A DNA stretch of 64,000 nt from NCBI GenBank assembly GCA_963660615.1, contig CAVKYE010000004.1, positions 11,465 through 75,464 of the forward strand. The letters are read 5' to 3'. Shown here in pieces: positions 1 to 60,527 of this stretch. This stretch comes from Vescimonas coprocola (GTDB lineage: Bacteria; Bacillota_I; Bacilli_A; RF39; UBA660). The notes under the pieces were generated by a model. It was not told the origin of the DNA, searched no databases, and saw only the letters and a program-made list of their open reading frames with translations. Numbering within the stretch: the stretch's first letter is position 1; each line of letters opens with the position of its first letter. The position numbers and the translations under genes are program-made.

Positions 1-842
1 ATAGCAGGTGTAACAGTACCAAAATAATCAGCATAGTTAGCAGCTTTAGCACTACCTAAAGTAATACCCTTAGTACTATCAAAGATAGTTTTAATACCAT
101 CATAAGCAACTGCATCATTACCGGCAGCAGCAGTTAAAGTATTAATTCCATAAGTATCACGAGCATTAGCAACACCATATGACGTATGAACATCATAATT
201 AGGTTCCCAAATCTTAACAGGTGAAGCCTCACCATTATTTAACCCTTGAATATTAGCAATACTATCATCACTTGTAGTATGACCCAAAGTAATAAATCCA
301 ACTCTTGTAGCATTCTTAATACCAGTATCTTTGGCATCTTTAAATTCTACTTTAGAATTAGCAGTCAAATAAAGATCAGTTGCAGTTTCAGTTTTTAAGA
401 ATAAATCATAAGCAACAAACGCTCCAGTTGAAGCATCACCAGAAGCATTAACTTCAGTAGATTTAGTAGAACTTAAAATCCAATCACCATTATCATTAGC
501 AGCAACAGTACCTAAGAACATTTCCATCTTACCAGTACTATCCACAGTTCCAACAGTTGAAACAGGCTCAAGAGTATTAGGAATTTGGTTAACCGCATTC
601 TTATAATTACCGCTTGCTCCAGTAATATCAGTATTAGTCAAAATAGACTTCCAATTCTGCCCATCTGCAGAAATTTGTAAACCACTCTTAGCAGTTACAT
701 TAACATCAATAGGATTAACAGAAACAGTCTTATTAGCCGTAAACCATGCATAAGTTGCAGTTCCTAAAAAAACACCAGTGCCTAACAACAATAATAGCGA
801 AAGCAACAATCGTCTTTGTTTCTTTTTCTTATTTTTTTTCAT
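1..842 (-). CDS. TasA/camelysin-like exported protein, N-terminal part only (gene runs off left edge); paralogue of 12142..13122
   Basis: Open to window edge so absent from ORF track. Minus-strand ATG at 842 with AAGGAG 6 nt upstream. My translation MKKNKKKKQRRLLLSLLLLLGTGVFLGTATYAWFTANKTVSVNPIDVNV...; KIWEPNYDVHTSYGVANA matches IWEPNYDVHTEYGVSNA of 12142..13122. Confidence 0.75.
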   Translation of the reverse strand, partial: MKKNKKKKQRRLLLSLLLLLGTGVFLGTATYAWFTANKTVSVNPIDVNVTAKSGLQISADGQNWKSILTNTDITGASGNYKNAVNQIPNTLEPVSTVGTVDSTGKMEMFLGTVAANDNGDWILSSTKSTEVNASGDASTGAFVAYDLFLKTETATDLYLTANSKVEFKDAKDTGIKNATRVGFITLGHTTSDDSIANIQGLNNGEASPVKIWEPNYDVHTSYGVANARDTYGINTLTAAAGNDAVAYDGIKTIFDSTKGITLGSAKAANYADYFGTVTPA

Positions 843-1126
843 ACACATCTCCTTCTATTCTATAAAGATATTATCACATTTTGTCAAAACAAGCAAGTAA
901 AAAATAAATAAAAAATAATTTTGTTCATTTATTTTACACAAATAAAAACAACTAAAATTAAAAAAATACTTCTTTATTCTTTATAATATTATATATAAAA
1001 CAAAAAACATAACCATTATAAAAATTGTATTTTAACTTTATCATACACTAAGCAAACTATAAAGGTAATTTTTTTGACAAATTACACGCAAAATAAAAAA
1101 ATGTAAAAAAGTGTAAAAAAAGAACA

Positions 1127-1690
1127 CTAAACCTGTTTAGCGTTCAAACTAATTTCCACATTATCAATCATACTCTGATACATATCGTCATTATACTCAC
1201 TAGGAAAATTAATCACAAGTTTATAAGTATCAGTTTTCTTAACACCCTTAGAAAAACTAGAAGCTGGAATACTAAATTTAAAAAAATACATTCCATCTTT
1301 ATCAGTAATAACTTCCTTATTACCAATAATATTTTCCGTAGAATCATTCAAAAATAAACTATAATTAACAGGAATATTAGTTGTCGTTCTAATAGACAAA
1401 GAATAATCCAAATCAACTTCACTAACCTTATTATCTTTAAAATTAGAAACATCAATATAATAAAAATTATCATTACCATCAGGCTTAACATCACTAAGTT
1501 TCAAGCTCTTTGACTGTGTCCCAGCAGAAATAGCAAAAAAAGCAACCGAAGCTTTCGCACTACCCTCTCCAGAACTCTCAAAAGAAGCAAAAGAATGCCT
1601 AAGCAAAAGTAAAAGCAAAAGCCCCAAGATAATAACTAAAGTAGCCCTATTAAACAACAAAAACTTACGCTTATCAATCATTTTTACCAT
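1127..1690 (-). CDS. small exported protein with SipW-type signal junction (..LRHSFASFESS); TasA-like small paralogue
   Basis: Track ORF 187 aa. Basic n-region, Leu-rich h-region, SFASFE junction. Overlaps upstream sipW-like gene by 17 nt. ATG at 1681 has better spacing to GAAGG and may be the true start. Confidence 0.7.
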   Translation of the reverse strand: MVKMIDKRKFLLFNRATLVIILGLLLLLLLRHSFASFESSGEGSAKASVAFFAISAGTQSKSLKLSDVKPDGNDNFYYIDVSNFKDNKVSEVDLDYSLSIRTTTNIPVNYSLFLNDSTENIIGNKEVITDKDGMYFFKFSIPASSFSKGVKKTDTYKLVINFPSEYNDDMYQSMIDNVEISLNAKQV

Positions 1691-2246
1691 CCTTCATCTT
1701 AATCCCAGAAAAATAAATTCCAAAATCATCAGATTTAGTAAGATGTCTCTTACCAGTATAAGAAAAGGCCAAAGAAAATAAAAACAAAGTAACACAAATC
1801 AAAACAATAATTTTGGGTGTTGTAATAACCTTAAACCATACACCATAATTCGGAAGAATCTTAACAACCTTACCAACAACATCCTTTTTCAAAACAGCCT
1901 TATCAGAAGTATTATTAGCATCTCCCTTAGTAACATAGCCATTCGCTGTAACAGAAACAACCCTATGAGTAACCAAAACATCATCAGACTCAAAAGTAAT
2001 AATATCAGAAGCTTTTGCTTCATCAGTAAGCTTAACCAATATTAAATCATTAGTTGTAATAGCAGGAGCCATACTATTACTACCAAGACTAAAAACAGTA
2101 TAAGAAAAGAAATTAACATACTTATGTGATAAAACATTTAAACAAATAAAAGAATAAACACATAAAACAATAACAAAAGAAAGTAATACAAACAAAATAT
2201 TACTAACAATCTTCGTTATTAAATATATATAATCACTTTTCATCAA
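1674..2246 (-). CDS. sipW: signal peptidase I, ER/archaeal (SipW) type
   Basis: 190 aa. N- and C-terminal TM segments; GSNSMAP (Ser box), NDLILVKL, LVTHRVV (His box), TKGDANN (Asp box), as in B. subtilis SipW (SGSMEP / THR / GDNN). Confidence 0.85.
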   Translation of the reverse strand: MMKSDYIYLITKIVSNILFVLLSFVIVLCVYSFICLNVLSHKYVNFFSYTVFSLGSNSMAPAITTNDLILVKLTDEAKASDIITFESDDVLVTHRVVSVTANGYVTKGDANNTSDKAVLKKDVVGKVVKILPNYGVWFKVITTPKIIVLICVTLFLFSLAFSYTGKRHLTKSDDFGIYFSGIKMKDGKND

Positions 2247-2251
2247 ATCAC

Positions 2252-2815
2252 CTACTTATACTGTACAAATTTAATACTGACTGGCACCTCAATATAATCC
2301 AAATTAGACCCTATACTAGAATCAACATCATTATACTCATCACTATTTTTCCAACTAAACGTGACCTTAATATAATACTTTTTAGAAGCTTTAATCTCAC
2401 TCAAAGAAGCAAGACCACTATAAACGCCATCAGCCAAAGTTAAAGTAGTACCATTAATACCAGAAACCTCATCAACAACAATTTGTGGATAAACTGAAGA
2501 CAAATTGACACTCAAATAATAATTAAATGAAGTCTCAGTATCCTTAGGATCAATAACAATAACAAAAGCTCCTTTAACCCCAGGTGCAAATTTAGAAACA
2601 CTCATCCCTTCTTCATCAGTATACGTAATTTCGTTAACAGTAAAAGTCTTATTTTCACCAGTTAAATCACTTTCATTAACACTAATATGCCATTTTGCAA
2701 TAGACAAATCCGTAGAAGAAGTAACCTTAGTTTCAAAAAGTCCAAAACTATTAACAATTTGAAATAATGTAAAAACAAGACATAATACTCCTAGAAATAT
2801 TAAACATTTTTTCAT
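2252..2815 (-). CDS. small exported TasA/camelysin-like protein (SipW-type signal junction ..IVNSFGLFETK)
   Basis: 187 aa. Shares AKW-I-VN and APGxxGxF motifs with 14426..15007. C-terminal YYIKVTFSW..acidic loop..VPVSIKFVQ pattern. ATGA overlap with upstream gene. Confidence 0.75.
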   Translation of the reverse strand: MKKCLIFLGVLCLVFTLFQIVNSFGLFETKVTSSTDLSIAKWHISVNESDLTGENKTFTVNEITYTDEEGMSVSKFAPGVKGAFVIVIDPKDTETSFNYYLSVNLSSVYPQIVVDEVSGINGTTLTLADGVYSGLASLSEIKASKKYYIKVTFSWKNSDEYNDVDSSIGSNLDYIEVPVSIKFVQYK

Positions 2816-3339
2816 TCTTCAATTGGAGTCTTAATTTCAATAATAACCCTGTATACTTCATACAAGAAAATAATCAAAGTAGGCAAAATAACCAAAAGTA
2901 AGAAACCATACTTAGACTCAAGAAGAGACAAAATTTTTCCTAAACCACTATAACATTTAGCAGTCTCAGTTTTACCAATTAAACTTTCACTAGAAATATC
3001 ATGATTACCATTAACAGTAAAAGTACTTTCAGTATCAGTAATAGTCTCAGTCTTAGTTACCTTACCAACATTAATAGTAGCAATACCATTAGAAACTTCA
3101 TAAAAGAAAATTTCATCCCCAACCTCAACATCACTATTTAAAGTCTTCTTAAAAACAACTAAATCACCACTTTTATACTTGTCACTTTTATCATCAATAA
3201 TAATTAAACTATTTCCATTAACAACCGATACCTTATAATCGTTATAACATAGTAACAAGCCAGTCAAAATGATAACAATTACAAAATATATAGTAATAAG
3301 AATACCTCCAATAATTTTCAAAACTTTTTTCATATACAC
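2812..3339 (-). CDS. SipW-like signal peptidase paralogue with all catalytic boxes substituted (probable pseudo-peptidase)
   Basis: 175 aa. Same N-TM / C-TM architecture and GDLVVFKK core as 1674..2246, but NGNSLI replaces SGSMEP-type box, ATINV replaces THR box, NGNHD replaces GDNN box. Confidence 0.6.
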   Translation of the reverse strand: MYMKKVLKIIGGILITIYFVIVIILTGLLLCYNDYKVSVVNGNSLIIIDDKSDKYKSGDLVVFKKTLNSDVEVGDEIFFYEVSNGIATINVGKVTKTETITDTESTFTVNGNHDISSESLIGKTETAKCYSGLGKILSLLESKYGFLLLVILPTLIIFLYEVYRVIIEIKTPIEE

Positions 3340-3383
3340 ACTCCTCTATAATAATTCTATCACAAAAATACTAAAAATAAAAT

Positions 3384-4904
3384 CTACTTTTCATAATTTG
3401 AAACAATTAACTTACTCTTCTTTACACTCTGCAAATCACAAATCGAAACACCATATTTAGAAAGAAACCTAGAAACTCTAAGCTTTTCTAAATCAGAAAT
3501 AATAGAATCTAAAGAAGAAAGCAAAGATTCCTTTTCAATATTCACATTAAAAAGTCGATAGTTAGAAACAATAATAGAAGCCACATCCACATCATCTAAA
3601 ATAGTTAAATTAGAAATAACCGTATTATCAGGATCTAAAACAAACAAAGCTAAAGAATCAAGTAAAGAAGAAATTTCATTGTAAGAATAATCAGAAGAAG
3701 ATTTAAAATAAGAAGCAAGTATACCATAATTTTGAGCCATCAAAAGCAAAGCTTTAAAAATAGTAGAATTATCCTTCAAACATTCCTTAATCTTAACTTT
3801 CATAATAGAAGAATCAATCTCATCATAAACAACCTTAATTTGATCAATTAAATCATTAATAATAGGCTCATACTTATCAACCTTAGTAAGAGACAAACGG
3901 CGACTAGACTTTTTGTTCAAAGCAAACAACTTAGATTCAAGCTTACCAATTTGTTTAAATCTTTTACCCAAAAAATCCTTTTCTAAATCTTCTTTATATA
4001 ACTCTCTTATCTTATCAATTAAAGAAACATAAGATTGATACTCCTTAAATTCATAAAGAGAATTCAAAAGCTTATTAAGAGCCTTTTCATCTAAAGAACC
4101 ATTAAACAAATTACTAATAATCGCCCCAATCTTTTCATCAGTATAATCATCAGGATTAAAAACATCATTATAAAAATTATAAAGCAAATTATTTTTAGAA
4201 GAAACCCTAGCTAAATCATACTTTCTTCTCGCATTCGAATAACCATCAATCAAACCCTGTTTAGAAGAAAAATTAGAAAGCAAAGACCTATTATAATTTT
4301 TAATATACCTATTAAAAGAACCAATATTCTTTAAATATAAAGATTTAAAATTAAGAATAATATGCATAACCAAATTAGGACATTGCCAAAAAATAGAATC
4401 AAAAGAAGATTTTAATTCATCGCAAGATAAATCCTCCCGAAACACGAAAAACTTAGTCATATATTGATTAACATAAGAACTATATCTAAAAGAAGAAGCA
4501 GAAATACAAACAGAGACCCTATCAAAAATAGAAACACATTCATCAATCTTCTTATTTAAATAATTAAAACTATCCGGCATATCCTCATAGCAAGATAAAT
4601 CATAAATAACCCTATCAAAACCAAGTTTCTCATAAGGAGTATTCATATCAGTAGTATAAAGTAAATCATCATAAAATTTAGAAACATCAGAATACAAAGA
4701 GCCAAAATCATCAAAGACAAGACTATCATAACAAGAAAGTCTATTTTTAAATTCCAAATAAATATTTTTCAAAATCCCTTCATACTTACTAATTTCTAAA
4801 GAAACATCATTAAAAACCTTCTCTTTATTCTTCAAAGTATCAAGAGGCATACTTTCAAAAACCTCAGTTGCAGCTTCAATATCCTTAGTTAACTTTTCCA
4901 ACAT
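3384..4904 (-). CDS. hypothetical cytoplasmic protein, 506 aa, no TM or signal, no family recognised
   Basis: Long uninterrupted ORF inside the fibre operon. Start ATG 5 nt after the AGGTGA that ends the 33-aa ORF upstream. Confidence 0.7.
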   Translation of the reverse strand: MLEKLTKDIEAATEVFESMPLDTLKNKEKVFNDVSLEISKYEGILKNIYLEFKNRLSCYDSLVFDDFGSLYSDVSKFYDDLLYTTDMNTPYEKLGFDRVIYDLSCYEDMPDSFNYLNKKIDECVSIFDRVSVCISASSFRYSSYVNQYMTKFFVFREDLSCDELKSSFDSIFWQCPNLVMHIILNFKSLYLKNIGSFNRYIKNYNRSLLSNFSSKQGLIDGYSNARRKYDLARVSSKNNLLYNFYNDVFNPDDYTDEKIGAIISNLFNGSLDEKALNKLLNSLYEFKEYQSYVSLIDKIRELYKEDLEKDFLGKRFKQIGKLESKLFALNKKSSRRLSLTKVDKYEPIINDLIDQIKVVYDEIDSSIMKVKIKECLKDNSTIFKALLLMAQNYGILASYFKSSSDYSYNEISSLLDSLALFVLDPDNTVISNLTILDDVDVASIIVSNYRLFNVNIEKESLLSSLDSIISDLEKLRVSRFLSKYGVSICDLQSVKKSKLIVSNYEK

Positions 4905-4908
4905 AAAA

Positions 4909-5010
4909 TCACCTACTTTCCTGCTTCTTTTTCTCTAAAAACTTTAAATAAGCTTCAATTTTATTAAAACATTCAATAAGCTCATCCATAGATAAATCAT
5001 TCAAATTCAT
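4909..5010 (-). CDS. 33-aa micro-ORF MNLNDLSMDELIECFNKIEAYLKFLEKKKQESR
   Basis: Below ORF-track size cutoff. ATG at 5010 preceded by GGAGG (5016..5020, overlapping the TAG of the giant gene) with 5-nt spacing. Its last codons AGG TGA form the RBS of the next gene. Confidence 0.45.
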   Translation of the reverse strand: MNLNDLSMDELIECFNKIEAYLKFLEKKKQESR

Positions 5011-5019
5011 AAAAACCTC

Positions 5020-8000
5020 CTATTTAATAATAATATAAGTCTCACAATCACCAATAAACGTATCACCATCATATAAACTAAAAACAAATTTGTAAGTACC
5101 ACTTTTTAAAGTAGACTTCAAATAAAGTGTCTTCTTAGAAGAAGAATCCGGATCAGAAATAAACATATATTCATTTTCAGAAACACTATCAAGTCTATTA
5201 GTAATAAAATCAAACAAATTAACTTTAACATAAGACGTATCATACAAATCATTATACTCACGTCTATAAAGAGAAACCCTAATAGATGGATTAATTAAAT
5301 TAGATGAATAACCAGTATCAAAATCCAAAGCATTAGTACTCTTAACATTAACACCACTATCACTATCAATAACAACCTCATCATCAGGAAGCGTAACATT
5401 AAGTCCATAAACGCTATCAACAATAGTAAATGGAATCTCATAAGAAGAAGCAGAAGAACCATAATAAATACCATCAGAAGAACCAAAAGCCTCAATTTTA
5501 AACTTATAAGTGCCACTAGACAAATTTAAATTTTCCGTATTAACTTTAATCTTACCATACCAATTAGCCACTTTATCAGCAACCGAAATACGAACACTAC
5601 CATCCATCCTTGGATAATAAACCTTATCCTTATATTCATAAGTCAAACCAAGCAAACTACTATTATTAAGTCTATTACCATTATTATCATAAATAGAAAT
5701 TTTAACCCCCATTTTCTTATCAAAATAAGTAGTATCTGTAACCGGAAGTGAACCAACAAGCGGTTGAGTAAAATTCGCATTTAAACTCAAACTAGGAGTA
5801 TCACCTAAATAAACCTTAGAATCATTAATAGAACCAGACAAATCAATAGATGCTTTACTATCATTATACAAATTATAAGTAAGTGCAGAATGTTGAATAC
5901 TAAGAACGCTAATCAAAGTCTGGTCATTTTTATTCCTTAACTCAAGCAAAAGTTTCTTATCAGTAACGTCCGAAGAAATAGAAGTATCTTCAAAAGAAAC
6001 ATTAAAAATAAATTCCTCTAAAACATAACCCGATTTATAATACCGACTATTATTCAAAGATTCATCAAAATTATTCGAGGAACTAGTAGAACCCATAGCC
6101 ACAAAATTACTAAGATTATAAGAACACTCACCATACTTCTCATACTCAGAAGAAGCACGGTTAACATCATCCTCAGAAACAACATAATAATAGTAAGTAT
6201 TATTAGCCAAATCAATCATCGTAAGCTTAGTATTAAGTGGAAAAACATAATCAGAAACTAAAGCATGATAATAACCATCCTGATAATATTGCTTATCAGA
6301 TTTCATATATAAAGAATAATACGCACTAAGATTAGACTTATTAGTAATATTCGTCGCCGTAGAAGCAAACAATCCATATTTCTCACCAGCCGCCATAGCA
6401 CCTTCATAATCATTATCACTATATAAAGCCGAACTCAAAGTAATATTAATATTAACACGAGTAACTTCATTATTTAAATCATCAATAGGCTTAATTGCAA
6501 GAAGTGAAATAACAACCGTACCAATTTCACGATTCAAAGTAATATTCTTTGAATGATACAAATAGAAAAGCAAAGACGGAACAGTAGAAGAGTTCTCAGC
6601 CTGATAATCACGCGTACCATCAATTGGAGTCTTAGAATCAGAAAGAAAATTAGTCTGACCTTTAGTAATAAAACCAGTATTAGAAGATTCCATAGAAAGA
6701 GCCATTCTATCATCAGCCGTTCCACTATTATTAACACGCGAAACAGAAGAAGGGGAAACAAGCTCAAAACCATCCTCCAAATTTTGATAATTAAAACCAA
6801 TAATTTCGTAAATCGTATTAGCACCAGCAGAAGCAGTCAAAGGAAGTTCATAAGTACCTAAAGTAGAATATTTAGATGCCGTCAAACTAAAATCATAAGT
6901 TGTAACCTTCTCCCCAATAACCCACATATAATAACTTGCATCACTAGGAGTAGGTTCAATATATTTAGCCTGAACAACTGAAGCCTTTTCCTCATTTTCA
7001 TAATTAGAATAAAATCCATCCTTAGTAATATCATGATTAGAAGTATGCATACCTAAAACATAACTACCAGAAGTAAATGAATAAAATTCACCAGATAAAA
7101 CCGAATCACCACTATTATACTTATTATTATAAAAAGCTGTAGAAACCTTGCCATTACGATCAAGCTGATACATACCAAAAAACGTCATACCACTTACCTT
7201 ACCATAACTAGTAACCGCTTCATTAGTAGCAATATTCAAATTTTTATTTTCAAGCATATAAACACGATTATTAACATTACGAGTAACATTATCACCATCA
7301 ATAGTAACACTAGCCTTTTCTTCAGTAGCACCGCTAATCTTCAAACTAGAAAACTTTTCAAGTAAATTAGTACCATTTCCCAAAAACAAAGTACTGCCAT
7401 TTGCGAGCTTAAGTTCCTTAACCCTACTAATACTAAACTTAGTATTTGAATACTCATTAGTTCTATCAGTAGTTCCCTCTAACTTAATAGCAGAATTCTT
7501 AATAGTAACAATATCAGCCCTTTGAATAGAAATATTTTCCTTATACTCATCAAAAGTACCATAATTACTAATATTAATATAACTATATCCTTTAGTACTA
7601 GATGCATTACCACTACCGAAAATAGAACCTAAAATATCAAACTGCTTATAACCATTCCCATCAATGTTAATAGTAATACCCTCAGTAACACTAATAAATG
7701 AATAATCATAATTGGTATCACCCGAAGCATTAGCCTCGCCACCACCAAACACAGTACCACCAATATTAATATTAGTCTTAACATAACTATCAACCGAAGA
7801 ACCAATATTCAAAATCGTCTTACCATATAAAATAGCCGTATTAGCACCACCATAAACATTACCAGAAATACTAGCACCTGCAATATTAACAGTACTAATA
7901 GATTTTGTACTATCCTTACTACCTGTATTAGCAGCATTACCTCCACCAAACACATGCTTAGAAATAACCGAATTATTATCAATAGTTAAAGTAGTATTAC

Positions 8001-12120: not shown

Positions 12121-12141
12121 ACATTTCCTCCTCTTCTAAAA

Positions 12142-13816: not shown

Positions 13817-13845
13817 ACAATCACGATTCCTTTATTATCAATACA

Positions 13846-13874
13846 ATTTTACCATAAAATGCAAATTTTGTCAT
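13846..13874 (-). promoter_or_regulatory. sigma-A-like promoter of the fibre operon
   Basis: Minus strand reads ATGACA - 17 nt (ending TGG) - TAAAAT, about 30 nt upstream of the ATG at 13816. Confidence 0.5.
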
Positions 13875-14400: not shown

Positions 14401-14425
14401 AAAACAAAAAGGAGGCGTAGTAAAT

Positions 14426-46350: not shown

Positions 46351-46353
46351 ACC

Positions 46354-46791: not shown

Positions 46792-46801
46792 GGTGATAAA
46801 A

Positions 46802-48142: not shown

Positions 48143-48153
48143 AGGTGATAAAA

Positions 48154-50836: not shown

Positions 50837-50885
50837 ATAAAAAAAAACAAATCCGCTCATCATTAAATAGAAGGGTGGATTTTTA

Positions 50886-51413
50886 ATGAAAAAAATAACA
50901 ATAACACTTATCATAATAAGCATATTTTACCTATCAATATCAAACATCCTAGCCGAAAACCTCACCACTCCAGAAGACGCCATCAGAATAAGAGTAGTCC
51001 CAAACAGTAATGAAGAAAACGACCAAAAAATAAAATCAACCGTCAAAGATAAGCTATCAGTAGAAATGTATAACCTCTTAAAAGACGCCAAAACAAGCCA
51101 AAACGCCAGAGAAATAATTGAACAAAACCTAGAAGAAATAAAAGCATCAGTATCCAAAACCCTAGAAAAAGAAAACTATAACAAAGATTTCAAGGTAAAC
51201 TTCGGATACAACTATTTTCCAGAAAAAAAATACAAAGGCGTAACCTATGAGGAAGGCTACTACGAATCACTACTCGTAACCCTAGGCGAAGGAAAAGGAG
51301 ATAATTGGTGGTGCGTCTTATTCCCACCCCTCTGCCTAGTAGAAGCCGACGAAAGCCAAAAAGACGTCGAATACAAATCATTAATAAAAGAAATACTAGA
51401 CAAATATTTATAG
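50886..51413 (+). CDS. spoIIR: stage II sporulation protein R
   Basis: 175 aa; signal peptide, IRIRVVPNSNEENDQKIK, GDNWWCVLFPPLC. Confidence 0.85.
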   Translation: MKKITITLIIISIFYLSISNILAENLTTPEDAIRIRVVPNSNEENDQKIKSTVKDKLSVEMYNLLKDAKTSQNAREIIEQNLEEIKASVSKTLEKENYNKDFKVNFGYNYFPEKKYKGVTYEEGYYESLLVTLGEGKGDNWWCVLFPPLCLVEADESQKDVEYKSLIKEILDKYL

Positions 51414-51458
51414 TAATAACAAAAAATAAAACCAATAAAATTCTAATAGGAGGCACCT

Positions 51459-51992
51459 ATGGAATTTTTTTTAATACTAATACTAGCAGTAAGCTTAAGC
51501 ATGGACGCATTTTCCTTATCATTAGCCTACGGAACCCTAGGAATAAAGAAAAACCACATATATGCCCTATCAATAATCACCGGAACATTTCACTTCATAA
51601 TGCCCTTATTAGGCTACATAATAGGTTCAAATATAATATCAATCCTAAAAATAAACACCAGCCTAATAACCTCAGCAGTCCTAATGATAATAGGAATTCA
51701 AATGATAATAGAAACCTTCAAAGAAGAAGAAATAAAATCCTTAAAAATACCCCAATATTTTCTCTTCGCCTTAGCAGTAAGCCTAGATAGCTTCACCATC
51801 GGCCTAACCCTCGACGAATTTAGTCAAAATATCACCATATCAGCCATAATATTCGCAATAACATCCGCAATATTTACTTTTATAGGCTTATCATTAGGTA
51901 ACAAAATAGAAAAATTAATAGGCAAAATCGCCACCATCACAGGAGGTATAATTTTAATCTTAATCGGCACAATATTCACTATAAATATGTAA
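51459..51992 (+). CDS. MntP/YtaF family (DUF204) membrane protein
   Basis: 177 aa; duplicated SMDAFS / SLDSFT motifs; 6 TM. Confidence 0.8.
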   Translation: MEFFLILILAVSLSMDAFSLSLAYGTLGIKKNHIYALSIITGTFHFIMPLLGYIIGSNIISILKINTSLITSAVLMIIGIQMIIETFKEEEIKSLKIPQYFLFALAVSLDSFTIGLTLDEFSQNITISAIIFAITSAIFTFIGLSLGNKIEKLIGKIATITGGIILILIGTIFTINM

Positions 51993-52228
51993 ATAAAATG
52001 TAAAGAAAAAACACTACTTAGTGTTTTTTTAAAATTTAAAAACCTCATCAAATATCGTAAAATCAAGAAAACCTTATAAATAAGTTCGTAAAACCGATTG
52101 AGATAATACAAATTTTATAAAAACATTTAAAAACAAACAAAAAAGGTGTATAATATGTTTCAGAATTTAATCAAAAGGGTTAAACACCATTTTAGGTTAA
52201 TAACATAATGTATAGTGAGAGTGATAGA

Positions 52229-53479
52229 ATGGAAATATTAAAAATAAAAGGTGGCAAAACCTTAAGTGGAACCATAGAAATAGGCGGAGCCAAAAATAGC
52301 GCAGTCGCCCTAGTACCAGCCGCAATATTATCAGACCATGTTGTTATCGAAAACGTTCCAGAAATATCTGATGTAAGAGCCTTAGAAGAAATAATCAATT
52401 ACTTAGGCGGAGAATATTATAAAGAAGGAAAAAAAGTAACCATCAATGCAAAAAAACTAAGAAACACACCCATAACCGCCGAACACTGCAAAAAACTAAG
52501 AGCATCATATTACTTTATGGGAGCCTTATTAGGAAGGTACAAAAAAGCCGAAATGTATTTTCCAGGAGGATGCACCATCGGCAAAAGACCAATCGATTTT
52601 CACCTAAAAGCCTTCGAAAAACTAGGAGCCAAAGTAACAATCGACGGTGATAAATATACAATCAAGGCAGATAAACTAAAAGGAGCAGAAATAACCTTCC
52701 CATTTGCCAGCGTAGGAGCCACCATAAATGTCCTACTAGCCGCCACCAAAGCCGAAGGAATAACAAAAATAAACAACGCCGCCAAAGAACCAGAAGTCGC
52801 AAACGTAATCGACCTATTAAATAGTATGGGGGCTAAAATAAGTGGTAAAGACACAAACACAATAACCATCGAAGGCGTAAAAAAACTAACCGGAGGAATT
52901 GTAAAAGTAATACCAGACCGCATAGAAGCTGGAACATATATAATCTTAGGAGCCATGGTTGGAAAAAATCTTGTAATAGATAAAATAAACAAAAACCACC
53001 TAACAAGCCTTTTAGAAACCCTAAAAGAAATGAACGTTCCATTAAAAATAGAAAAAGACAAAATAACCGTCAGTAAAAAAGAAACCCTAAATAAAGTAAA
53101 AGTAAAAACCGAAGTATACCCAGGTTTTCCAACCGACCTTCAGCAACCCCTAACACCACTTTTAACCAAAGCCCAAGGTGAAAGCCAAATAGAAGAAACA
53201 ATATACGAAAATAGATTCAAAAACGTAAAATACCTAAATCAAATGGGAGCAAACATCAAAGAAGAAGAAACAAAAATAATCATCAAAGGAAAAACAACCT
53301 TCCATAATGAAAAAGTAAAAGCAACAGACCTAAGAGCAGGAGCCTCATTAATCATCGCCGCCTTAGAAGCCGAAGGAGAAACCACCATCGAAGATGTAAA
53401 ATATGTCCTAAGAGGATACGAAAACATCATCAAAAAACTTACCCAAGTAGGAGCCGAAATAAGCCTAGAATACGTATAA
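52229..53479 (+). CDS. murA: UDP-N-acetylglucosamine 1-carboxyvinyltransferase
   Basis: Trimmed to ATG at 52229; MEILKIKGGKTLSGTIEIGGAKNSAVAL; PGGCTIGKRPID active-site Cys. Confidence 0.96.
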   Translation: MEILKIKGGKTLSGTIEIGGAKNSAVALVPAAILSDHVVIENVPEISDVRALEEIINYLGGEYYKEGKKVTINAKKLRNTPITAEHCKKLRASYYFMGALLGRYKKAEMYFPGGCTIGKRPIDFHLKAFEKLGAKVTIDGDKYTIKADKLKGAEITFPFASVGATINVLLAATKAEGITKINNAAKEPEVANVIDLLNSMGAKISGKDTNTITIEGVKKLTGGIVKVIPDRIEAGTYIILGAMVGKNLVIDKINKNHLTSLLETLKEMNVPLKIEKDKITVSKKETLNKVKVKTEVYPGFPTDLQQPLTPLLTKAQGESQIEETIYENRFKNVKYLNQMGANIKEEETKIIIKGKTTFHNEKVKATDLRAGASLIIAALEAEGETTIEDVKYVLRGYENIIKKLTQVGAEISLEYV

Positions 53480-53538
53480 AAATCATAAAATAAAATATAA
53501 TTAAGTAGACTAAATGTCTACTTTTTATGAGGTGAAGT

Positions 53539-54216
53539 ATGAAAAAAATATTAGTCTTCGGCCTAATTATACTAGCAGTCTTTCTTATCTACCTATGCAA
53601 TCTAGATAAAAAAGTTTACTACCTAGCCCTAGGAGATAACCAAAATAACCAAAAAAGTTATAGCACACACATAAAAGACTATTTAAAAAAACAAAAACTC
53701 CTAGAAACATACGTAAAAACAAAAAACACATATCGCACCACCGATTTAATAAACAAAATCAAACAAAACAAAAAAATAAACCACAACAAAAAAGAAATAA
53801 CCATGCAAAATGCCCTAATAAAAGCTGACCTCGTAACCCTATCAATAGAAAACAAAGACATAATAGAAAAAATAGAAAAAAATGACATTACAAACAAAAC
53901 ATATAACTACATAGATGACCTTACAAAAGATCTAGACAAACTTCTTTCACTAACAAGAGAATATTGCAAAGAAGATATAATCATGACAGGCTACTATAAT
54001 CCTTATCCAAAAAACAAACAAAGCGAAAAAATAATAAACTATCTAAACAAAAAATATAAAGAAACCTCAAAAAAATACAACGTTATATATGTAGAAATAG
54101 ATACACTTTTCAAAGAAAACCCCGCATTCATAAATGATAAATCAACCAAAGACTCATCCAAAGCCATATCAGGAGAAATAATTGGTAGAATAAATAAAAC
54201 CTTACTAAAGTCTTGA
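53539..54216 (+). CDS. membrane-anchored SGNH/GDSL-like protein with substituted catalytic blocks
   Basis: 225 aa. N-terminal TM; YYLALGDNQ (block I with Asn for Ser), LVTLSIENKD (block II), TGYYNPY (block III); no DxxH block found. Confidence 0.5.
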   Translation: MKKILVFGLIILAVFLIYLCNLDKKVYYLALGDNQNNQKSYSTHIKDYLKKQKLLETYVKTKNTYRTTDLINKIKQNKKINHNKKEITMQNALIKADLVTLSIENKDIIEKIEKNDITNKTYNYIDDLTKDLDKLLSLTREYCKEDIIMTGYYNPYPKNKQSEKIINYLNKKYKETSKKYNVIYVEIDTLFKENPAFINDKSTKDSSKAISGEIIGRINKTLLKS

Positions 54217-54297
54217 TTTTTACAACATAATTTGTTACAATAACAAAGTATTAAATTTCTATGGCAAAAAATTTGTCATGGCGGAAGGAGAGATATT

Positions 54298-54510
54298 ATG
54301 AAAAAAGGCATTCATCCAGAATACCAAGATACTAAAGTAATATGCGCTTGCGGAAACACTTTTACCGTAAAATCAAACAAAGCAGAATTACACTTAGAAG
54401 TATGTGATAAATGTCATCCATTCTTTACTGGAAAACAAGGAGCAACCAAAAAAGCTGGTCGTGTTGAGAAGTTTAACAAAAAATATGGATTTGATAAGAA
54501 AGAAGCGTAA
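54298..54510 (+). CDS. rpmE: 50S ribosomal protein L31 (Cys-containing type)
   Basis: 70 aa; [13 protein letters not shown]...[10 protein letters not shown]. Confidence 0.97.
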
Positions 54511-54514
54511 AACC

Positions 54515-54544
54515 AATAACTCAGTTTCAAAACTGAGTTATTTT
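54515..54544 (+). terminator. rho-independent terminator of rpmE
   Basis: aataactcagtt / aactgagttatt perfect 12-bp stem, loop tcaa, then tt. Confidence 0.8.
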
Positions 54545-54652
54545 CATAAACCAAAAAACGACAAAAAAAAATAATCTATTTAATATCCATAGATTTATAA
54601 CGAACTTTATGGTAAAATGGTAATAGTGTATTTATAGAAAATGGTGGTATAA

Positions 54653-55438
54653 ATGGGAAAAATAATAGCATTAGTAAATCAAAAAGGTGGAGTAGGAAAA
54701 ACAACAACAAGCATCAATCTATCAGCATCCCTAGGAACCCTAGGCAAAAAAGTATTGCTAATAGACCTAGACCCACAAGGTAACAGTACCACAGGACTAG
54801 GAATCGAAAAAGGCGACATAAAAAGTAGTATCTATGACCTTTTAACCGACAAAGCCGAACTAAAAGATGTAATAAAGAAAACAAAATTTAGAAACCTTTA
54901 CATCATCCCCGCAACAATAAGCCTAGCCGGAGCAGACATCGAACTAATGGAAAGAAGTAGAATGGATCCAACATTCACAAAAAACAGTCAACTAAAAAAA
55001 CATCTAGAACTCGCAAGCCCAATGTTTGACTACATCCTAATAGACTGCCCACCATCACTAGGCATTCTAACCACCAACGCCCTAACCGCTGCTAACTCAG
55101 TAATAATTCCCGTACAGTGTGAATTTTTCGCTCTAGAAGGAATAATGCAACTATTAAACTCAATCATGTTAGCCCAAAAAACCCTAAATCCATCATTAGA
55201 CATCGAAGGCGTATTACTAACAATGTTAGATAATAGAACAAACCTTGGATTAGAAGTAGTACAAGACATAAAAAGCTATTTCAAAGAAAGAGTATATGAT
55301 ACCATAATTCCAAGACTAGTAAGACTATCAGAAGCCCCAAGTCATGGAAAACCAATAATTGCTTATGACCCAAAAAGTAGAGGAGCTGAAGCATACTTAA
55401 ACTTAGCCAAAGAGGTGATGAATAGAAATGGAAAATAA
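54653..55438 (+). CDS. parA: chromosome partitioning ATPase ParA/Soj
   Basis: 261 aa; NQKGGVGKTTT deviant Walker A. Confidence 0.96.
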   Translation: MGKIIALVNQKGGVGKTTTSINLSASLGTLGKKVLLIDLDPQGNSTTGLGIEKGDIKSSIYDLLTDKAELKDVIKKTKFRNLYIIPATISLAGADIELMERSRMDPTFTKNSQLKKHLELASPMFDYILIDCPPSLGILTTNALTAANSVIIPVQCEFFALEGIMQLLNSIMLAQKTLNPSLDIEGVLLTMLDNRTNLGLEVVQDIKSYFKERVYDTIIPRLVRLSEAPSHGKPIIAYDPKSRGAEAYLNLAKEVMNRNGK

Positions 55439-56306
55439 AAAAAGAGCCCTAGGTAAAGGCCTAGAACAATTATTTGATTTAGAAAACTTAAACGTCGACA
55501 ACGTAAGTAATTTTGAAAAACAAATATACGAAGAAACAAAAGGCGAAGAAATAATCGAACTTAATGTAGATGAAATAAGACCAAACCCATATCAACCAAG
55601 ACACATATTCAACGAAGAAGCCCTAAAGGATCTAGCAAATTCCATCAAAGAAAATGGCGTATTTCAACCAATAATCGTCAAAAAAAGCATAAAAGGATAT
55701 GAACTAATAGCCGGAGAAAGAAGACTAAGAGCAAGTAAAATGGCTGGAAAAACAACAATACCTGCCATAATTCGCCAATTATCAGATGATAAAATGGCCG
55801 AAATAGCCCTTCTAGAAAACCTTCAAAGAGAAAACCTAAACGCCCTAGAAGAAGCCATGGCCTATAAAAGCCTAATAGATAAATTAGGCATAACCCAAGA
55901 AGAACTATCAAAAAAAGTCAGCAAAAGCCGTAGTCATATCACCAACATGATAGGATTACTTAGACTACCAAACGAAGTACAAGAAATGATAGCCGACAAA
56001 AAAATAACCATGGGTCATGCAAGAGCCCTAAGCAAACTAGAAAATGAAGAAGAAATAATAAATATGGCTAAAGACATAACAGAAAACAGCCTACCAGTCC
56101 GTGAAATAGAAAAAGCTTCAGAAAATTCAGCAAAAAAAATAGTCCAACACCGCATCAAACCAACAAACGAATATGCTTATGTTGAAGACTTAATAAGAGA
56201 AAAACTAGACACCAAAATAAAAATAAAAAATAATAAAATAGAAATATCCTTCACCAACACAGCCGATTTAAACCGTATATTAGAAATATTAAATATAAAG
56301 GAATGA
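55428..56306 (+). CDS. parB: chromosome partitioning protein ParB/Spo0J
   Basis: 292 aa; RPNPYQPR, LIAGERRLRAS, SRSHITNMIGLLRLP, GHARAL. Confidence 0.96.
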   Translation: MENKKRALGKGLEQLFDLENLNVDNVSNFEKQIYEETKGEEIIELNVDEIRPNPYQPRHIFNEEALKDLANSIKENGVFQPIIVKKSIKGYELIAGERRLRASKMAGKTTIPAIIRQLSDDKMAEIALLENLQRENLNALEEAMAYKSLIDKLGITQEELSKKVSKSRSHITNMIGLLRLPNEVQEMIADKKITMGHARALSKLENEEEIINMAKDITENSLPVREIEKASENSAKKIVQHRIKPTNEYAYVEDLIREKLDTKIKIKNNKIEISFTNTADLNRILEILNIKE

Positions 56307-56310
56307 TAAA

Positions 56311-57105
56311 ATGATAGAAAAACTATTAACCAAAGAAATCATAGCCCCAATATTTATAGTCATAATTGCCATCCTTACATACATATTAATCAAACAAATT
56401 ATAATGAAAATGTTTAAGGCAAGCAAAAAATATGGGATACATAAAAAATCACTCACAATAATTAACCTAATTACAAATATAATAAAATACATAATCATCA
56501 TAGTCGCAGTTTTATCAGTCCTAAATATTTGGGGAGTCGATACCAAAGCTCTAGTCGCATCACTTGGAATTGTCGGAGTTGTAGCTGGACTTGCCATGCA
56601 AGACATATTAAAGGATTTCCTAGCTGGATTTTCAATAATCGTTGACAACGAATACGACGTAGGTGACAACATAAAAATAGGTACATTCAGAGGAGATGTC
56701 ATCGAACTTGGAATGAAAAACACCAAAGTAAGAGCCTACAGTGGAGAAGTATTAACAATTTCCAATAGAAATATAAACGAAGTAATCAACTATAGTACCC
56801 AATCATCAAGAAGTATAGTAGACGTAACCGTCGACTACACATGTGACCTAGAAGAAGTCGAAAAAGTCTTAAAAGAAGTATGCGAAACCTTAAGCAAAGA
56901 AACCCCATACCTAACATCAGACGTCGAATTACTAGGAATTCAAGAACTAGGAGATAACGCTGTAATATATCGACTAATAGCCGACTGTGAACCAACCAAA
57001 GACATCCCATTTAATAGAGAAGTTCTAAGAGCCGTAAAAATAGCCTTCGACAAAAATGGCATTGAAATTCCTTATCCTCAGGTGGTGGTACACAGTGCAA
57101 AATAA
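56311..57105 (+). CDS. small-conductance mechanosensitive channel (MscS family)
   Basis: 264 aa; 3 TM then GDNIKIGTFRGDVIELGMKNTKVRAYSGEVLTISN. Confidence 0.88.
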   Translation: MIEKLLTKEIIAPIFIVIIAILTYILIKQIIMKMFKASKKYGIHKKSLTIINLITNIIKYIIIIVAVLSVLNIWGVDTKALVASLGIVGVVAGLAMQDILKDFLAGFSIIVDNEYDVGDNIKIGTFRGDVIELGMKNTKVRAYSGEVLTISNRNINEVINYSTQSSRSIVDVTVDYTCDLEEVEKVLKEVCETLSKETPYLTSDVELLGIQELGDNAVIYRLIADCEPTKDIPFNREVLRAVKIAFDKNGIEIPYPQVVVHSAK

Positions 57106-57280
57106 CTACAACATTGGAACAAAAGTAATAATGAAAAAACCACATCCATGTGGAACAAACTCATGGGAAATAGTAAGAATAGGAGCCGACATAAAAATAA
57201 AATGTCTAGGCTGTGGAAGAACCCTAATGTTGCCTCGAGTAGAATTCAACAAAAAACTCAAAAAAATAGTAGAGGAGTAG
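57095..57280 (+). CDS. DUF951 family protein
   Basis: Trimmed to GTG at 57095 (GGTGG upstream); KKPHPCGTNSWEIVRIGADIKIKCLGCGRTLMLPR. Confidence 0.8.
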   Translation: MQNNYNIGTKVIMKKPHPCGTNSWEIVRIGADIKIKCLGCGRTLMLPRVEFNKKLKKIVEE

Positions 57281-57284
57281 GAAA

Positions 57285-58799
57285 ATGAAAAAGAAAAAGA
57301 AAAATATATTATTAGGTCCAGTAATAACCATCATAATCATGATCCTAGTTATTACAATAATAAGTGCAATCTGTTCCGCATTTTCCGTCCAAGGAGAAAT
57401 AACAAGCGTTTCAAACGGCACCCTAGAAACCGAAACAACCACCGTAAAAAGTTTATTTTCTAGTGAAGGAATAAAATACATCTTTAGCTCACCAGTTCAA
57501 ACCTTCAAAACATTCCAGCCCCTAGTTTTACTAATAATCGCCCTAATGGCAATCTCAATCGGAAAAGCCAGCGGCCTATTCAAAGCAATATTCACAAGAT
57601 TCAGAAAATTAAAACCAGGATTTGTAACCTTCATAACCCTATTCGTTGGAATAATCTCATCATTTTTTGGGGAATACGGATACGTAGTACTAGTACCACT
57701 AACCGCCGTAATATATCAATATTTAGGTAGAAATTCAGTTTTAGGAATCCTAACATCATTCATCGGAATAACATTAGGCTATGGAGCCGGGCTAATCTTC
57801 AACTTCGACGATTACAGTCTAGGCTTACTAACCAAAGAAGCCGCCACCGTAAGTGTCGACAAAGACTATGTCTTCAACGCTTGGTCTAACTCATACATAA
57901 TGATAGCAAGTTCCTTTATCCTATCAATAATAGGAACAATAATAATAGAATCATTCCTAAGACCAAAAGTCAAAGAAGACATAAAAGAAGAAGCCGAATT
58001 CAACTACTCAAAAAAAGGCCTAATAATAAGCAACATAGCCTTCGTAATTCTAAGCTTATTCTTCATATATATGATAGTACCAGATCTTCCAGGCAGTGGA
58101 ATACTACTAGATATGGATAAAAAAGACTACGTCGCACAACTACTAGGAGGAGATGCACCATTCACAGATGCCTTCATCTTCATGCTACTAATTATGCTAA
58201 TGATATGTTCCGCAATCTATGGTTTCATCTCAAAAAATTTCAAAAACACCAACGAATTCAGTGTGGGCCTATCAAAAGAATTTGATAACCTAGGATACAT
58301 ATTTGTCCTAATGTTCTTCGTATCATTAATGGTAAGCATCCTAAACTTTACCAACCTAGGAGAAGTATTAGGATCATATCTAATATCATTTATGGATAAC
58401 CTAGAATTCACAGGAATACCATTAATCATAACAATGATGATAGTAATAATCCTAATGTCAATATTAATACCAGATTCAGTAACAAAATGGACAATTGCAT
58501 CCCCAATCCTAGTTCCACTATTTATGAAAGCCAACATAACCCCAGATTTTACCCAATTTATCTTTAAAGCCGCCGACAGTATAGGAAAAGGAATAACCCC
58601 ATTTTTCATATACTTCATAGTTATGTTAGCCTTCCTAGAAAAATATAATAGTAAAGAAAGCGTTAGAATAACTGTGTTTGGAACTTTGAAAACAATAATG
58701 CCAACCATACTACTATTTGCCGTAGTATTAGTACTTATCGTAATAGGATGGTTCATAATAGGCCTTCCAATAGGACCAGATACATACCCAACAATGTAA
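57285..58799 (+). CDS. AbgT family transporter
   Basis: 504 aa polytopic. VKSLFSSEGIKYIF...FQPLVLLIIALMAISIGKASGLF parallels E. coli AbgT VKNLLSVEGLHWFL...FAPLGAILALVLGAGLAERVGLL (from memory). Confidence 0.78.
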   Translation: MKKKKKNILLGPVITIIIMILVITIISAICSAFSVQGEITSVSNGTLETETTTVKSLFSSEGIKYIFSSPVQTFKTFQPLVLLIIALMAISIGKASGLFKAIFTRFRKLKPGFVTFITLFVGIISSFFGEYGYVVLVPLTAVIYQYLGRNSVLGILTSFIGITLGYGAGLIFNFDDYSLGLLTKEAATVSVDKDYVFNAWSNSYIMIASSFILSIIGTIIIESFLRPKVKEDIKEEAEFNYSKKGLIISNIAFVILSLFFIYMIVPDLPGSGILLDMDKKDYVAQLLGGDAPFTDAFIFMLLIMLMICSAIYGFISKNFKNTNEFSVGLSKEFDNLGYIFVLMFFVSLMVSILNFTNLGEVLGSYLISFMDNLEFTGIPLIITMMIVIILMSILIPDSVTKWTIASPILVPLFMKANITPDFTQFIFKAADSIGKGITPFFIYFIVMLAFLEKYNSKESVRITVFGTLKTIMPTILLFAVVLVLIVIGWFIIGLPIGPDTYPTM

Positions 58800-58819
58800 A
58801 AGAGCAAAAGCTCTTTTTT
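58798..58819 (+). terminator. rho-independent terminator
   Basis: aaaagagc aaaa gctctttt followed by tt. Confidence 0.7.
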
Positions 58820-58882
58820 GTTTTAAAATAGCCCTTTAAAAATAAACAAATATATAGTATAATACCATATAGGTGATGAAAA

Positions 58883-59977
58883 ATGAGTTTAACAGCAGGA
58901 ATCGTAGGATTACCAAACGTAGGTAAATCCACACTATTTAACGCCATAACAAAACAAAACATACTAGCGGCCAACTATCCATTCGCCACCATTGAACCAA
59001 ACGTTGGAATGGTAACCGTGCCAGATAAAAGAGTAGACTTTTTAGAAAAACTATACAACCCCAAAAAAACAATCCCAGCCACCTTTGAATTTACCGATAT
59101 AGCAGGTTTAGTAGAGGGAGCCTCAAAAGGAGAAGGACTAGGAAATAAATTCTTATCACATATAAGAGAAGTAGACGCCATCTGTGAGGTAGTAAGATGC
59201 TTCGATAACGAAAACGTAACCCACGTAAGTGGAGGAGTAGATCCAGTTAGAGACGTAGATATTATTAACCTAGAATTAATCTTATCAGACCTAGAAGTAA
59301 TCGAAACAAGACTAGAAAAAATAGGCAGAAAAGCCAAACTATCAAACGACAAAGAAACCAAAGAAGAAGTAAAAATTCTAGAAAAAGTAAAAGAAGCCTT
59401 AATAAACAATAACCCCGCAAGAAGTCTAGAATACACAGAAGAAGAACTAAAAACATTAAAAGCCTTCAACTTACTAACCATAAAACCAATAATCTACGTT
59501 GCAAACGTCAGTGAAGAAGAAATAAATATAGAAAACAAGTACGTAAAAAAACTAAAAGAATACGCCGGAAGTGATGCCGAAGTAGTCGTAATATGTGCTA
59601 AAATAGAAGCTGAACTATCAGAATTAGATGACGAAGACAAAAAAGAATTCCTAGAAGACCTAGGAATAGAAGAAAGTGGACTAGACAAACTAATAAAAAA
59701 ATCATATAGCCTTCTAGGACTATCAACCTTCCTAACAGGAGGAAAAGACGAAGTAAAAGCTTGGACTTTCAAAAACGGAATGAAAGCCCCACAATGTGCT
59801 GGAATAATCCATACAGACTTCGAAAAAGGATTCATAAAAGCCGAAGTAATGAGCTATAATGACCTAGAAAAATATGGAACCGAAGCCAAAGTAAAAGAAG
59901 CCGGCAAACTTAGATTAGAAGGAAAAGACTACATAATGCAAGATGGGGATATCTGTTACTTTAGATTCAATGTATAA
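58883..59977 (+). CDS. ychF: redox-regulated ATPase YchF
   Basis: 364 aa; GLPNVGKSTLFNA, C-terminal TGS region. Confidence 0.97.
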   Translation: MSLTAGIVGLPNVGKSTLFNAITKQNILAANYPFATIEPNVGMVTVPDKRVDFLEKLYNPKKTIPATFEFTDIAGLVEGASKGEGLGNKFLSHIREVDAICEVVRCFDNENVTHVSGGVDPVRDVDIINLELILSDLEVIETRLEKIGRKAKLSNDKETKEEVKILEKVKEALINNNPARSLEYTEEELKTLKAFNLLTIKPIIYVANVSEEEINIENKYVKKLKEYAGSDAEVVVICAKIEAELSELDDEDKKEFLEDLGIEESGLDKLIKKSYSLLGLSTFLTGGKDEVKAWTFKNGMKAPQCAGIIHTDFEKGFIKAEVMSYNDLEKYGTEAKVKEAGKLRLEGKDYIMQDGDICYFRFNV

Positions 59978-60020
59978 GAATAAAAAACAATTAAAAATAC
60001 ATAATAAAAAAGGTGATAAA

Positions 60021-60527
60021 ATGTATTATATTAATTGTTTTTTTATATACTCATTCCTAGGATTTATATTAGAAACCCTAATCACATTTATATTAGGATA
60101 TAACTACAATAGTGGATTTTTAAAAGGCCCCATAACCCCATTATATGGCATAGGAGCCATACTAGTTATAATAATATCAGATAAATGCTTCAAAAATCTC
60201 CACTTGCCAAGATGGATAGAAACAATAATAGTCTTCATCATAATAACAATCATCTTAAGCTTCCTAGAATACATAGGAGGAACACTAATAGAAATAATTT
60301 TCCACAAAGTATTTTGGGACTATAGCAATTACAAATTCAACATAGGCAAATACATTTGCCTAGAAATGAGTGCAGTATGGGGAATATTAAGCATAATATT
60401 TATATACCTAATAAAACCAATATTAGATAACACCATAATCTTAATACCAAAAAAAATAACATATATATTTTGTATAATCTTTATTCTAGATATAATATAT
60501 ACACTCATTACCGCAAATCCAAACTAA
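60021..60527 (+). CDS. polytopic membrane protein (putative ABC-transporter type IV / PF06541-like)
   Basis: Trimmed to ATG at 60021 (AAGGTGA upstream); FIYSFLGFILETL N-terminus typical of that family. Core-like A/C-ending codon usage. Confidence 0.65.
   Translation: MYYINCFFIYSFLGFILETLITFILGYNYNSGFLKGPITPLYGIGAILVIIISDKCFKNLHLPRWIETIIVFIIITIILSFLEYIGGTLIEIIFHKVFWDYSNYKFNIGKYICLEMSAVWGILSIIFIYLIKPILDNTIILIPKKITYIFCIIFILDIIYTLITANPN

Follow-up and report, generated by a model that had tools for sequence, protein, structure and literature searches.

A canonical-looking rpmH-dnaA-dnaN locus that may lie within a single replichore in a gut lineage of Bacilli

The stretch analysed here (the window) is 64,000 nt of contig CAVKYE010000004.1 from Vescimonas coprocola, with the 30% G+C of a Bacillus-class chromosome (the genome is 70% A+T). 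It contains dnaA (24478-25824, plus strand), the point where gene orientation diverges, and our subject is the strand composition of the DNA on either side of this gene and what it says about where replication starts. To the left, 18 of the 19 genes of a block at 1127-23976 lie on the minus strand; in left-to-right order this block comprises a SipW-associated cluster of paralogs of about 187 residues, a 2366-residue protein, a Noc-like ParB, rsmG, mnmG, mnmE, jag, yidC, rnpA and rpmH. The exception is a lone plus-strand gene at 14426-15007, a paralog of the gene at 2252-2815. To the right, all 33 genes of the block at 24478-60527 are on the plus strand: dnaA, dnaN, comK, recF, gyrB, gyrA, scr (the signal recognition particle [SRP] RNA), tadA, dnaX, recR, holB, ricT, rsmI, pth and mfd, followed by an nrnA-like gene, rplI, dnaB, rlmH, a murA-like gene, rpmE, parA, parB and ychF. 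The order from dnaA to mfd is that of the right arm of Bacillus subtilis. Genes for rRNA and tRNA were sought in the window as orientation markers and none was found.

The locus looks like a canonical Firmicutes oriC because DnaA boxes are clustered both upstream of dnaA and in the dnaA-dnaN spacer; the divergent gene orientation is also that of such an origin. In the rpmH-dnaA spacer there is a cluster of five boxes (24209-24404), two of them perfect (TTATCCACA), which on sequence match is a putative oriC-like or dnaA-autoregulation module. The dnaA-dnaN spacer (25840-25970) has tandem boxes (TTTTCCACA, twice, at 25903-25920) and then an AT-rich tract carrying two TAA repeats, which in a 70% A+T genome are at best a weak sign of DnaA-trio repeats; as a whole it resembles the incC/DNA-unwinding-element module of Firmicutes. 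In addition, a parS array (33465-34432) fills the 1.2 kb of non-coding DNA that separate gyrA from the SRP RNA gene, with seven TGTTTCACGTGAAACA-like sites at two or fewer mismatches where 0.01 would be expected by chance. In B. subtilis this position is taken by an rRNA operon. The array is kept at the same place in 43 related loci (among L001-L074), with up to 11 perfect copies, and is present in lineages that have a skew flip at dnaA as well as in those that do not. It is the predicted centromere-like site of ParB loading adjoining the oriC-like locus.

Does strand composition change sign at this locus? The sequence-only reading of the window had claimed that the plus strand has more C than G and more A than T on both sides of dnaA. 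Its line counts for the right side were reproduced exactly (A194 C115 G71 T100) and those for the left side, given as 151/77/41/91, were slightly off (A155 C73 G43 T89 on recount), with the excess of C and A intact; the codons it quoted for the IAGERR motif of noc and parB were also as stated. The asymmetry proved sharper than claimed at sites that are free to vary. At pooled third codon positions the plus-strand GC and AT skews are -0.78 and +0.59 on the left and -0.67 and +0.48 on the right, and at pooled four-fold degenerate sites they are -0.69 and +0.68 on the left and -0.85 and +0.63 on the right. Plus-strand GC skew at third positions (GC3) is negative, and AT skew (AT3) positive, in 18 of 18 minus-strand genes on the left and 33 of 33 plus-strand genes on the right. 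Read on the coding strand, every left gene is G/T-rich at synonymous sites (GC3 skew +0.5 to +0.96, AT3 -0.4 to -0.67) and each of the 33 right genes is C/A-rich, dnaA itself having a GC3 skew of -0.65 and an AT3 skew of +0.50. The lone plus-strand gene at 14426-15007 is an internal control: its plus-strand GC3 (-0.59) and AT3 (+0.42) match those of its minus-strand neighbors, so the asymmetry belongs to the strand and not to the direction of transcription. The replication-linked change of skew sign that goes with a canonical Firmicutes oriC (plus strand C-rich to the left, G-rich to the right) is thus absent from rpmH-dnaA-dnaN.

Counts over all bases are less transparent. The raw plus-strand GC and AT skews are -0.343 and +0.149 at 1-24047, and -0.062 and +0.335 at 24478-60527, so that raw GC skew rises by about 0.3 at 24 kb without mirroring and is weakly positive (+0.088) at 26-35 kb. 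The rise comes from codon position 1, at which the coding strand of each gene has an excess of G (GC skew at this position +0.25 to +0.56), a property that follows gene orientation and flips with it. A change of raw GC sign at 23-27 kb had been named beforehand as evidence against uniform polarity; a feeble one does occur near 26 kb, but there is no flip at synonymous sites. It is of note that within the right block GC3 skew is weaker at 24478-36829 (-0.12 to -0.65) than at 40417-58799 (-0.62 to -0.88), and that G+C content at third positions climbs with distance from dnaA, from about 0.19 to 0.30-0.41. The weaker skew near dnaA could reflect expression level, residual firing of a local oriC, or something else.

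The same pattern is found in other genomes. Relatives of the window's DnaA come from metagenome-assembled genomes (MAGs) of uncultured gut Bacilli that include 'Firmicutes bacterium CAG:822' and 'Candidatus Coprosoma', the latter corresponding to GTDB genus CAG-822, family CAG-822, order RF39 (PMC8035907). In essentially all related loci that extend far enough, rpmH lies directly upstream of dnaA. This junction is seen in dozens of independent short- and long-read assemblies, complete chromosomes included, and in one species it is the same in eight independent assemblies, long-read contigs among them. (RpmH sequences differ between species, and exact-match anchoring across species failed.) Of 72 species-level loci in which dnaA is flanked by genes to the left and right, 30 are window-like, with both sides negative, three are the mirror image, 26 have a canonical flip, and 13 have weak skew. 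The 26 loci with a canonical flip act as a positive control on the method. Left and right values were fitted as (U-B, U+B), in which the orientation-linked term B averages 0.16 and the non-flipping term U runs from -0.63 to +0.76 among the surveyed loci; in the window U is about -0.73 (third positions). In the mirror-image lineages (L041, L057 [CANRPB010000015.1] and L061) the strand that codes for dnaA is rich in G and T to either side of the gene, with GC3 values of +0.64/+0.87 and AT3 values of -0.52/-0.59 in L057, and it is the rpmH-side genes that look head-on.

Polarity over longer distances was followed in 13-22 kb samples of long contigs, obtained by looking up exact sequences of multi-copy insertion-sequence (IS) proteins and of DnaA from the OZ007022.1 species. 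The most informative contig, tig00014406 (788,768 bp), is from the same species as OZ007022.1 (1,520,450 bp), whose skew pattern is window-like; its dnaA, a reverse-strand gene, occupies 604,971-606,314. On the forward strand third positions are G-rich (GC3 +0.2 to +0.85) at 47-69, 162-204, 269-291, 353-366, 595-616 and 701-739 kb, and weakly so at 661-678 kb, next to a ribosomal-protein operon; the sample at 504-517 kb is a defence/IS island and is uninformative for skew. At the sampled positions, one physical strand is thus G-rich from about 47 to 739 kb, that is for at least 692 kb, straight across dnaA. Gene orientation does flip at dnaA: genes above 606 kb are on the forward strand and those below 605 kb (tsf, rpsB, rpsU, ileS, argS, dnaE, polA, polC and the arc operon among them) are mostly on the reverse strand. 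Polarity and orientation together mean that at least about 558 kb on the dnaN side has C-rich coding strands. At both ends of a second contig (576,257 bp), which belongs to the same strain graph, the polarity is the same and it is the G-rich strand that carries the genes. The 1.52-Mb genome thus contains two uniform blocks, with minimum lengths of 692 and 552 kb, each about half of it. In other samples flanking IS copies in related genomes, gene runs are about evenly split between the G-rich and the C-rich strand, and more distant relatives from JGI metagenomes (70% identity or less) show a similar split, with same-strand gene runs occurring widely on the C-rich strand. The S10-spc operon (95-7566 of L138; about 671-678 kb of tig00014406) has third-position skews of -0.48 to +0.37 with a mean near 0 in strongly skewed surroundings; translational selection presumably overrides the mutational bias there.

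A change of sign was found at the far end of the first block. Contig L167 (contig_33235), reached via a comEC fragment, is collinear with 47-53 kb of tig00014406 at 95-99% identity. On one strand its GC3 skew is -0.27 in ftsW, -0.29 in comEA, and -0.58 and -0.31 in comEC; after an IS605-type insertion it is +0.80 (a 220-residue protein), +0.71 (a radical-SAM protein), +0.69 (a 141-residue protein), +0.74 (RecD2) and +0.57 (a dehydrogenase). This flip is of the origin type, with the G-rich strands diverging, and takes place just downstream of comEC within about 1.6 kb, in a region that holds an IS605-type tnpB insertion and in which all genes are on one strand. It lies about 558 kb from dnaA on the dnaN side, or 37% of the 1.52-Mb chromosome, and the sampled part of tig00014406 extends 692 kb from it, which is about half of the chromosome. 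Two further contigs bear on the matter. In L168 (tig00014405, 1-19230) the same right-hand side is joined via an IS cluster to different DNA, and both the genes and the raw skew (-0.35 versus +0.38) diverge from the junction; in L141 a flank of the S10 operon is joined to a flank of a distant IS copy. These joins look like the products of inversion between two replichores of opposite polarity; were there only one polarity, each would amount to a large deletion. (The L141 contig is of low quality and could be a chimera.) Such structural differences between strains are located at IS clusters; in one of them comEC is split by IS21, IS66 and Mu-like insertions, and in one strain it is joined to a different region. 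A distant relative, L170 (ODAI012609216.1), in which the radical-SAM protein is 70% identical, also has an origin-type GC3 flip (-0.2 to +0.5) at about 4.9-6.5 kb with all genes on one strand.

We consider it fairly probable that the window lies within one replichore traversed by forks moving from right to left, that its dnaA locus is not a bidirectional origin, and that the skew-defined origin is far to the right. The chromosome is then probably copied from a start point hundreds of kb away, with many essential genes head-on to the fork. The composition would result from a replication-linked, strand-specific mutational bias of the keto/amino type that is unusually strong in this lineage; from its signature and size, exposed single strands may be deaminated to an unusual extent. 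The G+T-rich strand, exposed to C-to-T deamination, is taken as the leading strand. On that basis the minus strand would be leading across the whole window, the left genes would be co-oriented with a leftward fork, and the 36 kb or more from dnaA to ychF (and on to rpsR) would have faced the fork head-on for so long that its composition is at equilibrium. A bias of the same sign on both sides would mean that rpmH-dnaA-dnaN, for all its resemblance to an oriC, is not where two forks part. The active origin would lie far to the right; in the related species it would map next to comEC, if the flip marks a functional origin, and the species of the window would be organized in the same way. From the comEC side the chromosome would divide into two replichores of opposite polarity and roughly the same length, which would meet at a terminus on the rpmH side of dnaA, 134-340 kb past the gene. 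The sequence-only reading had taken the DNA from dnaA to ychF for long-term lagging-strand (head-on) DNA, which the synonymous-site skew supports, and of the four explanations that it offered, an origin elsewhere, to the right, is the one best supported by the 692 kb of uniform polarity and the flip about 558 kb from dnaA in the relative.

A bolder proposal, to which as a single claim we would give somewhat less than an even chance, is that the RF39 CAG-822/Ca. Coprosoma clade as a whole has retired its rpmH-dnaA-dnaN oriC, even though the DnaA boxes there are intact and the parS centromere is expanded, and starts replication at a DnaA-box-free site more than a third of the genome away. This would leave about 0.5 Mb of a PolC-type Firmicute permanently head-on, including dnaA, dnaN, gyrAB, polC, dnaE, polA and rpsB-tsf, and different lineages would have shifted in opposite directions; the strand asymmetry would, to our knowledge, be the strongest in bacteria.

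Several observations weigh against a distant origin. In the first place, the dnaA locus retains its DnaA-box clusters and the conserved parS array. Second, the intergenic plus-strand GC skew is -0.42 left of dnaA but near zero (+0.06) to the right, with AT skews of +0.20 and +0.23; the flipping part of the GC skew may be attributable to G-rich ribosome-binding motifs. Third, no DnaA-box cluster was found at the flip, the 21 kb searched having eight near-consensus matches against 7.6 expected, none of them clustered. Fourth, the flip is seen in the strain variant L167 and in tig00014405 but not in tig00014406 itself, and, with about 9 kb sampled beyond it, it could mark one border of a short inversion. 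The samples also include no terminus-type flip. The window's own genome is traceable only to about 66 kb, extension from ychF having given contigs of 29 kb or less. Finally, long-term head-on placement of dnaN, gyrAB, polC, dnaE and rpsB-tsf is, as far as we know, unexpected for a Firmicute of the PolC type.

The explanation that otherwise survives best, though we judge it unlikely, is unidirectional replication from an oriC linked to dnaA, in which only a leftward fork is established, circles round and returns to dnaN from the right. It would make sense of the intact oriC-like module and parS array at dnaA, and of a polarity that stays the same through 692 kb spanning dnaA and through 552 kb of the second contig. 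In the complete genome OZ007025.1 the G-rich strand is the same at dnaA (about 141 kb) and at 843-856 kb, where the excess is weak; of the gene runs sampled, about half are on the C-rich strand, as an ancestral two-arm layout with a single fork direction predicts; and extreme skew and the missing flip co-occur across lineages. A unidirectional replicon should, however, have one polarity and no extrema, whereas there is a flip in L167 and L168, from the relative's strain. The sharp change beside comEC would have to be dismissed as a very recent inversion, and L168 and L141 would be products of direct-repeat recombination, that is, lethal deletions. Moreover, the unidirectional large replicons predicted in a published survey are mostly secondary ones (chromids), and the Firmicutes entries consulted among them are labelled as plasmids (PMC7858055). 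So while unidirectional or strongly asymmetric replication, another of the options raised by the sequence-only reading, did fit the uniform polarity, the comEC flip and the two inversion-like variants disfavor it and it is no longer needed, though for the window's own species it keeps a modest probability.

Less probable still is a strand-specific process of mutation or repair unrelated to fork direction, with replication proceeding bidirectionally from dnaA. The wide variation of U among lineages (-0.63 to +0.76) beside a flipping component of about 0.16 nearly everywhere could be read in this way, as could an intergenic skew much weaker than that at four-fold sites. Yet no known process acts in such a manner over hundreds of kb, transcription is excluded since oppositely oriented genes carry the same strand skew, and polarity domains of about half a genome with an origin-type boundary are replichore-like.

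A recent large inversion or translocation that placed DNA of lagging-strand composition beside a normal dnaA origin is very improbable. The genomes are IS-rich, rearrangements are observed between strains, and genes of the B. subtilis left arm (rplI-dnaB, parAB, ychF and rpsF-ssb-rpsR) are on the right arm here. However, an inversion leaves the composition of a gene relative to its own coding strand unchanged, so C/A-rich coding strands require a long head-on period; the dnaA-dnaN-recF-gyrBA-...-mfd order is ancestral and intact, and the skew, which is at full equilibrium magnitude, is common to 30 species. Codon-usage selection or transcription-coupled bias, with highly expressed right-hand genes favoring C- and A-ending codons, has even less to recommend it. 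Ribosomal-protein genes do differ (the S10-spc operon of L138 is almost skew-free) and the genes nearest dnaA are less skewed than those further right, but all 33 right-hand genes are affected whatever their function, hypothetical and membrane proteins included, the plus-strand gene of the left block follows its strand, and oppositely oriented neighbors share their skew in many loci. An assembly misjoin in the rpmH-dnaA spacer, also suggested earlier, is ruled out for practical purposes by the recurrence of the junction in independent assemblies and complete chromosomes, and both sides have the same polarity, unlike a joined pair of leading-strand regions.

The right end of the window calls for separate comment. 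Here lies a low-GC (24%), skew-free island of hypothetical genes (60528-64000, plus strand), G+C being 21-26% across 60255-64000. It sits downstream of ychF and a CmpB-like gene; about 400 bp from the 3' end of the latter occur twice, as direct repeats (60255-60648 and 61682-62072, 91% identity) that enclose about 1.4 kb of the island (60.65-61.68 kb). The island looks like a recent insertion. Skew ends at about 60.6 kb in the window and returns past the island in a contig of the same species (L083, 99.7% identical, island at 4376-8100), where GC3 skew is -0.71 in rpsF and -0.79 in ssb; it is lost past 60.6 kb because the insertion interrupts the skewed DNA without ending it. No dif-like terminus site was found in the window (the best half-site, at the start of the direct repeat, has seven mismatches) or in 1 Mb of related loci.

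Some other genes of the window deserve mention. A gene for a ComK-family competence regulator lies between dnaN and recF (27143-27661) and is at the same place in relatives (L117-L126). The Noc-like ParB (15297-17231) has 644 residues, of which only the first 250 or so match Noc/ParB; the match scores below the NCBIfam cut-off for Noc, and the long C-terminal extension is uncharacterized. The lineage-specific family of about 187 residues adjoins a SipW-type signal peptidase and has several copies in the window (1127-4904 and 14426-15007). It has no matches in Pfam or NCBIfam. In a relative, seven tandem copies lie beside a signal peptidase elsewhere in the genome (L139, 823-5730).

If replication does start far from dnaA in this abundant gut lineage, rotating its genomes or MAGs to dnaA, predicting its origins from dnaA plus DnaA boxes, and estimating its growth rates from origin-to-terminus coverage ratios would all go wrong. 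Firmicutes are the textbook case of strong selection keeping essential genes co-oriented with replication, and a clade that gets by with roughly one third of its genome, replication genes included, in head-on orientation would put this rule to a natural test. So large a skew also points to an unusual mutational regime in these not-yet-cultured organisms, perhaps heavy cytosine deamination of single-stranded DNA or a missing repair function, and if the new start site really has no DnaA boxes, one would have to ask what specifies initiation there.

Codon usage that depends on the strand is already known, as are origins far from dnaA. Literature searches gave no report of skew anomalies in RF39 or CAG-822, and no description of a Bacillus-class genome with a canonical rpmH-dnaA-dnaN deep in a replichore and hundreds of kb of core genes head-on; a list of RefSeq genomes with rolling-circle-like skew has no Firmicutes in it. 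Whole-genome skews in RefSeq genomes range over ±0.4, and most genomes show the expected bidirectional pattern (PMC7111523). The four-fold GC skew here, 0.7-0.85 with matching AT skew, is far above that range, which refers to all bases and makes the comparison only indicative. Unidirectional replicons are rare: the survey mentioned above predicts 77 of them among 16,103 large replicons, as against 13,722 bidirectional ones (PMC7858055). The chromids of Pseudoalteromonas replicate unidirectionally (Xie et al. 2021, PMC7858055). Like these, the genomes studied here keep one skew sign over very long distances across the initiator-gene locus, but the chromids are plasmid-derived secondary replicons and have no flip at all, whereas here there is an origin-type flip and each block of uniform polarity spans about half a genome.

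Borrelia burgdorferi is the classic case of replication-associated asymmetry with strand-dependent codon usage. The principle of such asymmetry has been reviewed (PMC7111523). As in Borrelia, third positions in the window are split by strand into G/T-ending and A/C-ending, most strongly at synonymous sites and independently of gene function; unlike in Borrelia, the split does not coincide with the dnaA/oriC locus. Vertebrate mitochondria have a heavy/light-strand asymmetry in which one strand is G+T-rich and the other A+C-rich. The mutational signature is the same here and its size at four-fold sites comparable, which is consistent with heavy cytosine deamination of long-exposed single-stranded DNA; as replicon and machinery are entirely different, the likeness is in signature only. 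In E. coli, oriC is located some 42 kb from dnaA, in the interval between mnmG and mioC, and the Caulobacter oriC is not adjacent to dnaA either. Here too dnaA would not mark the origin and the skew minimum would be elsewhere. However, the present case is a Bacillus-class Firmicute with a canonical rpmH-dnaA-dnaN order, DnaA-box clusters and a parS array, and whereas in E. coli and Caulobacter the intervening genes are co-oriented and span tens of kb, here they would be head-on and, in the relative, span about 558 kb, or 37% of the chromosome.

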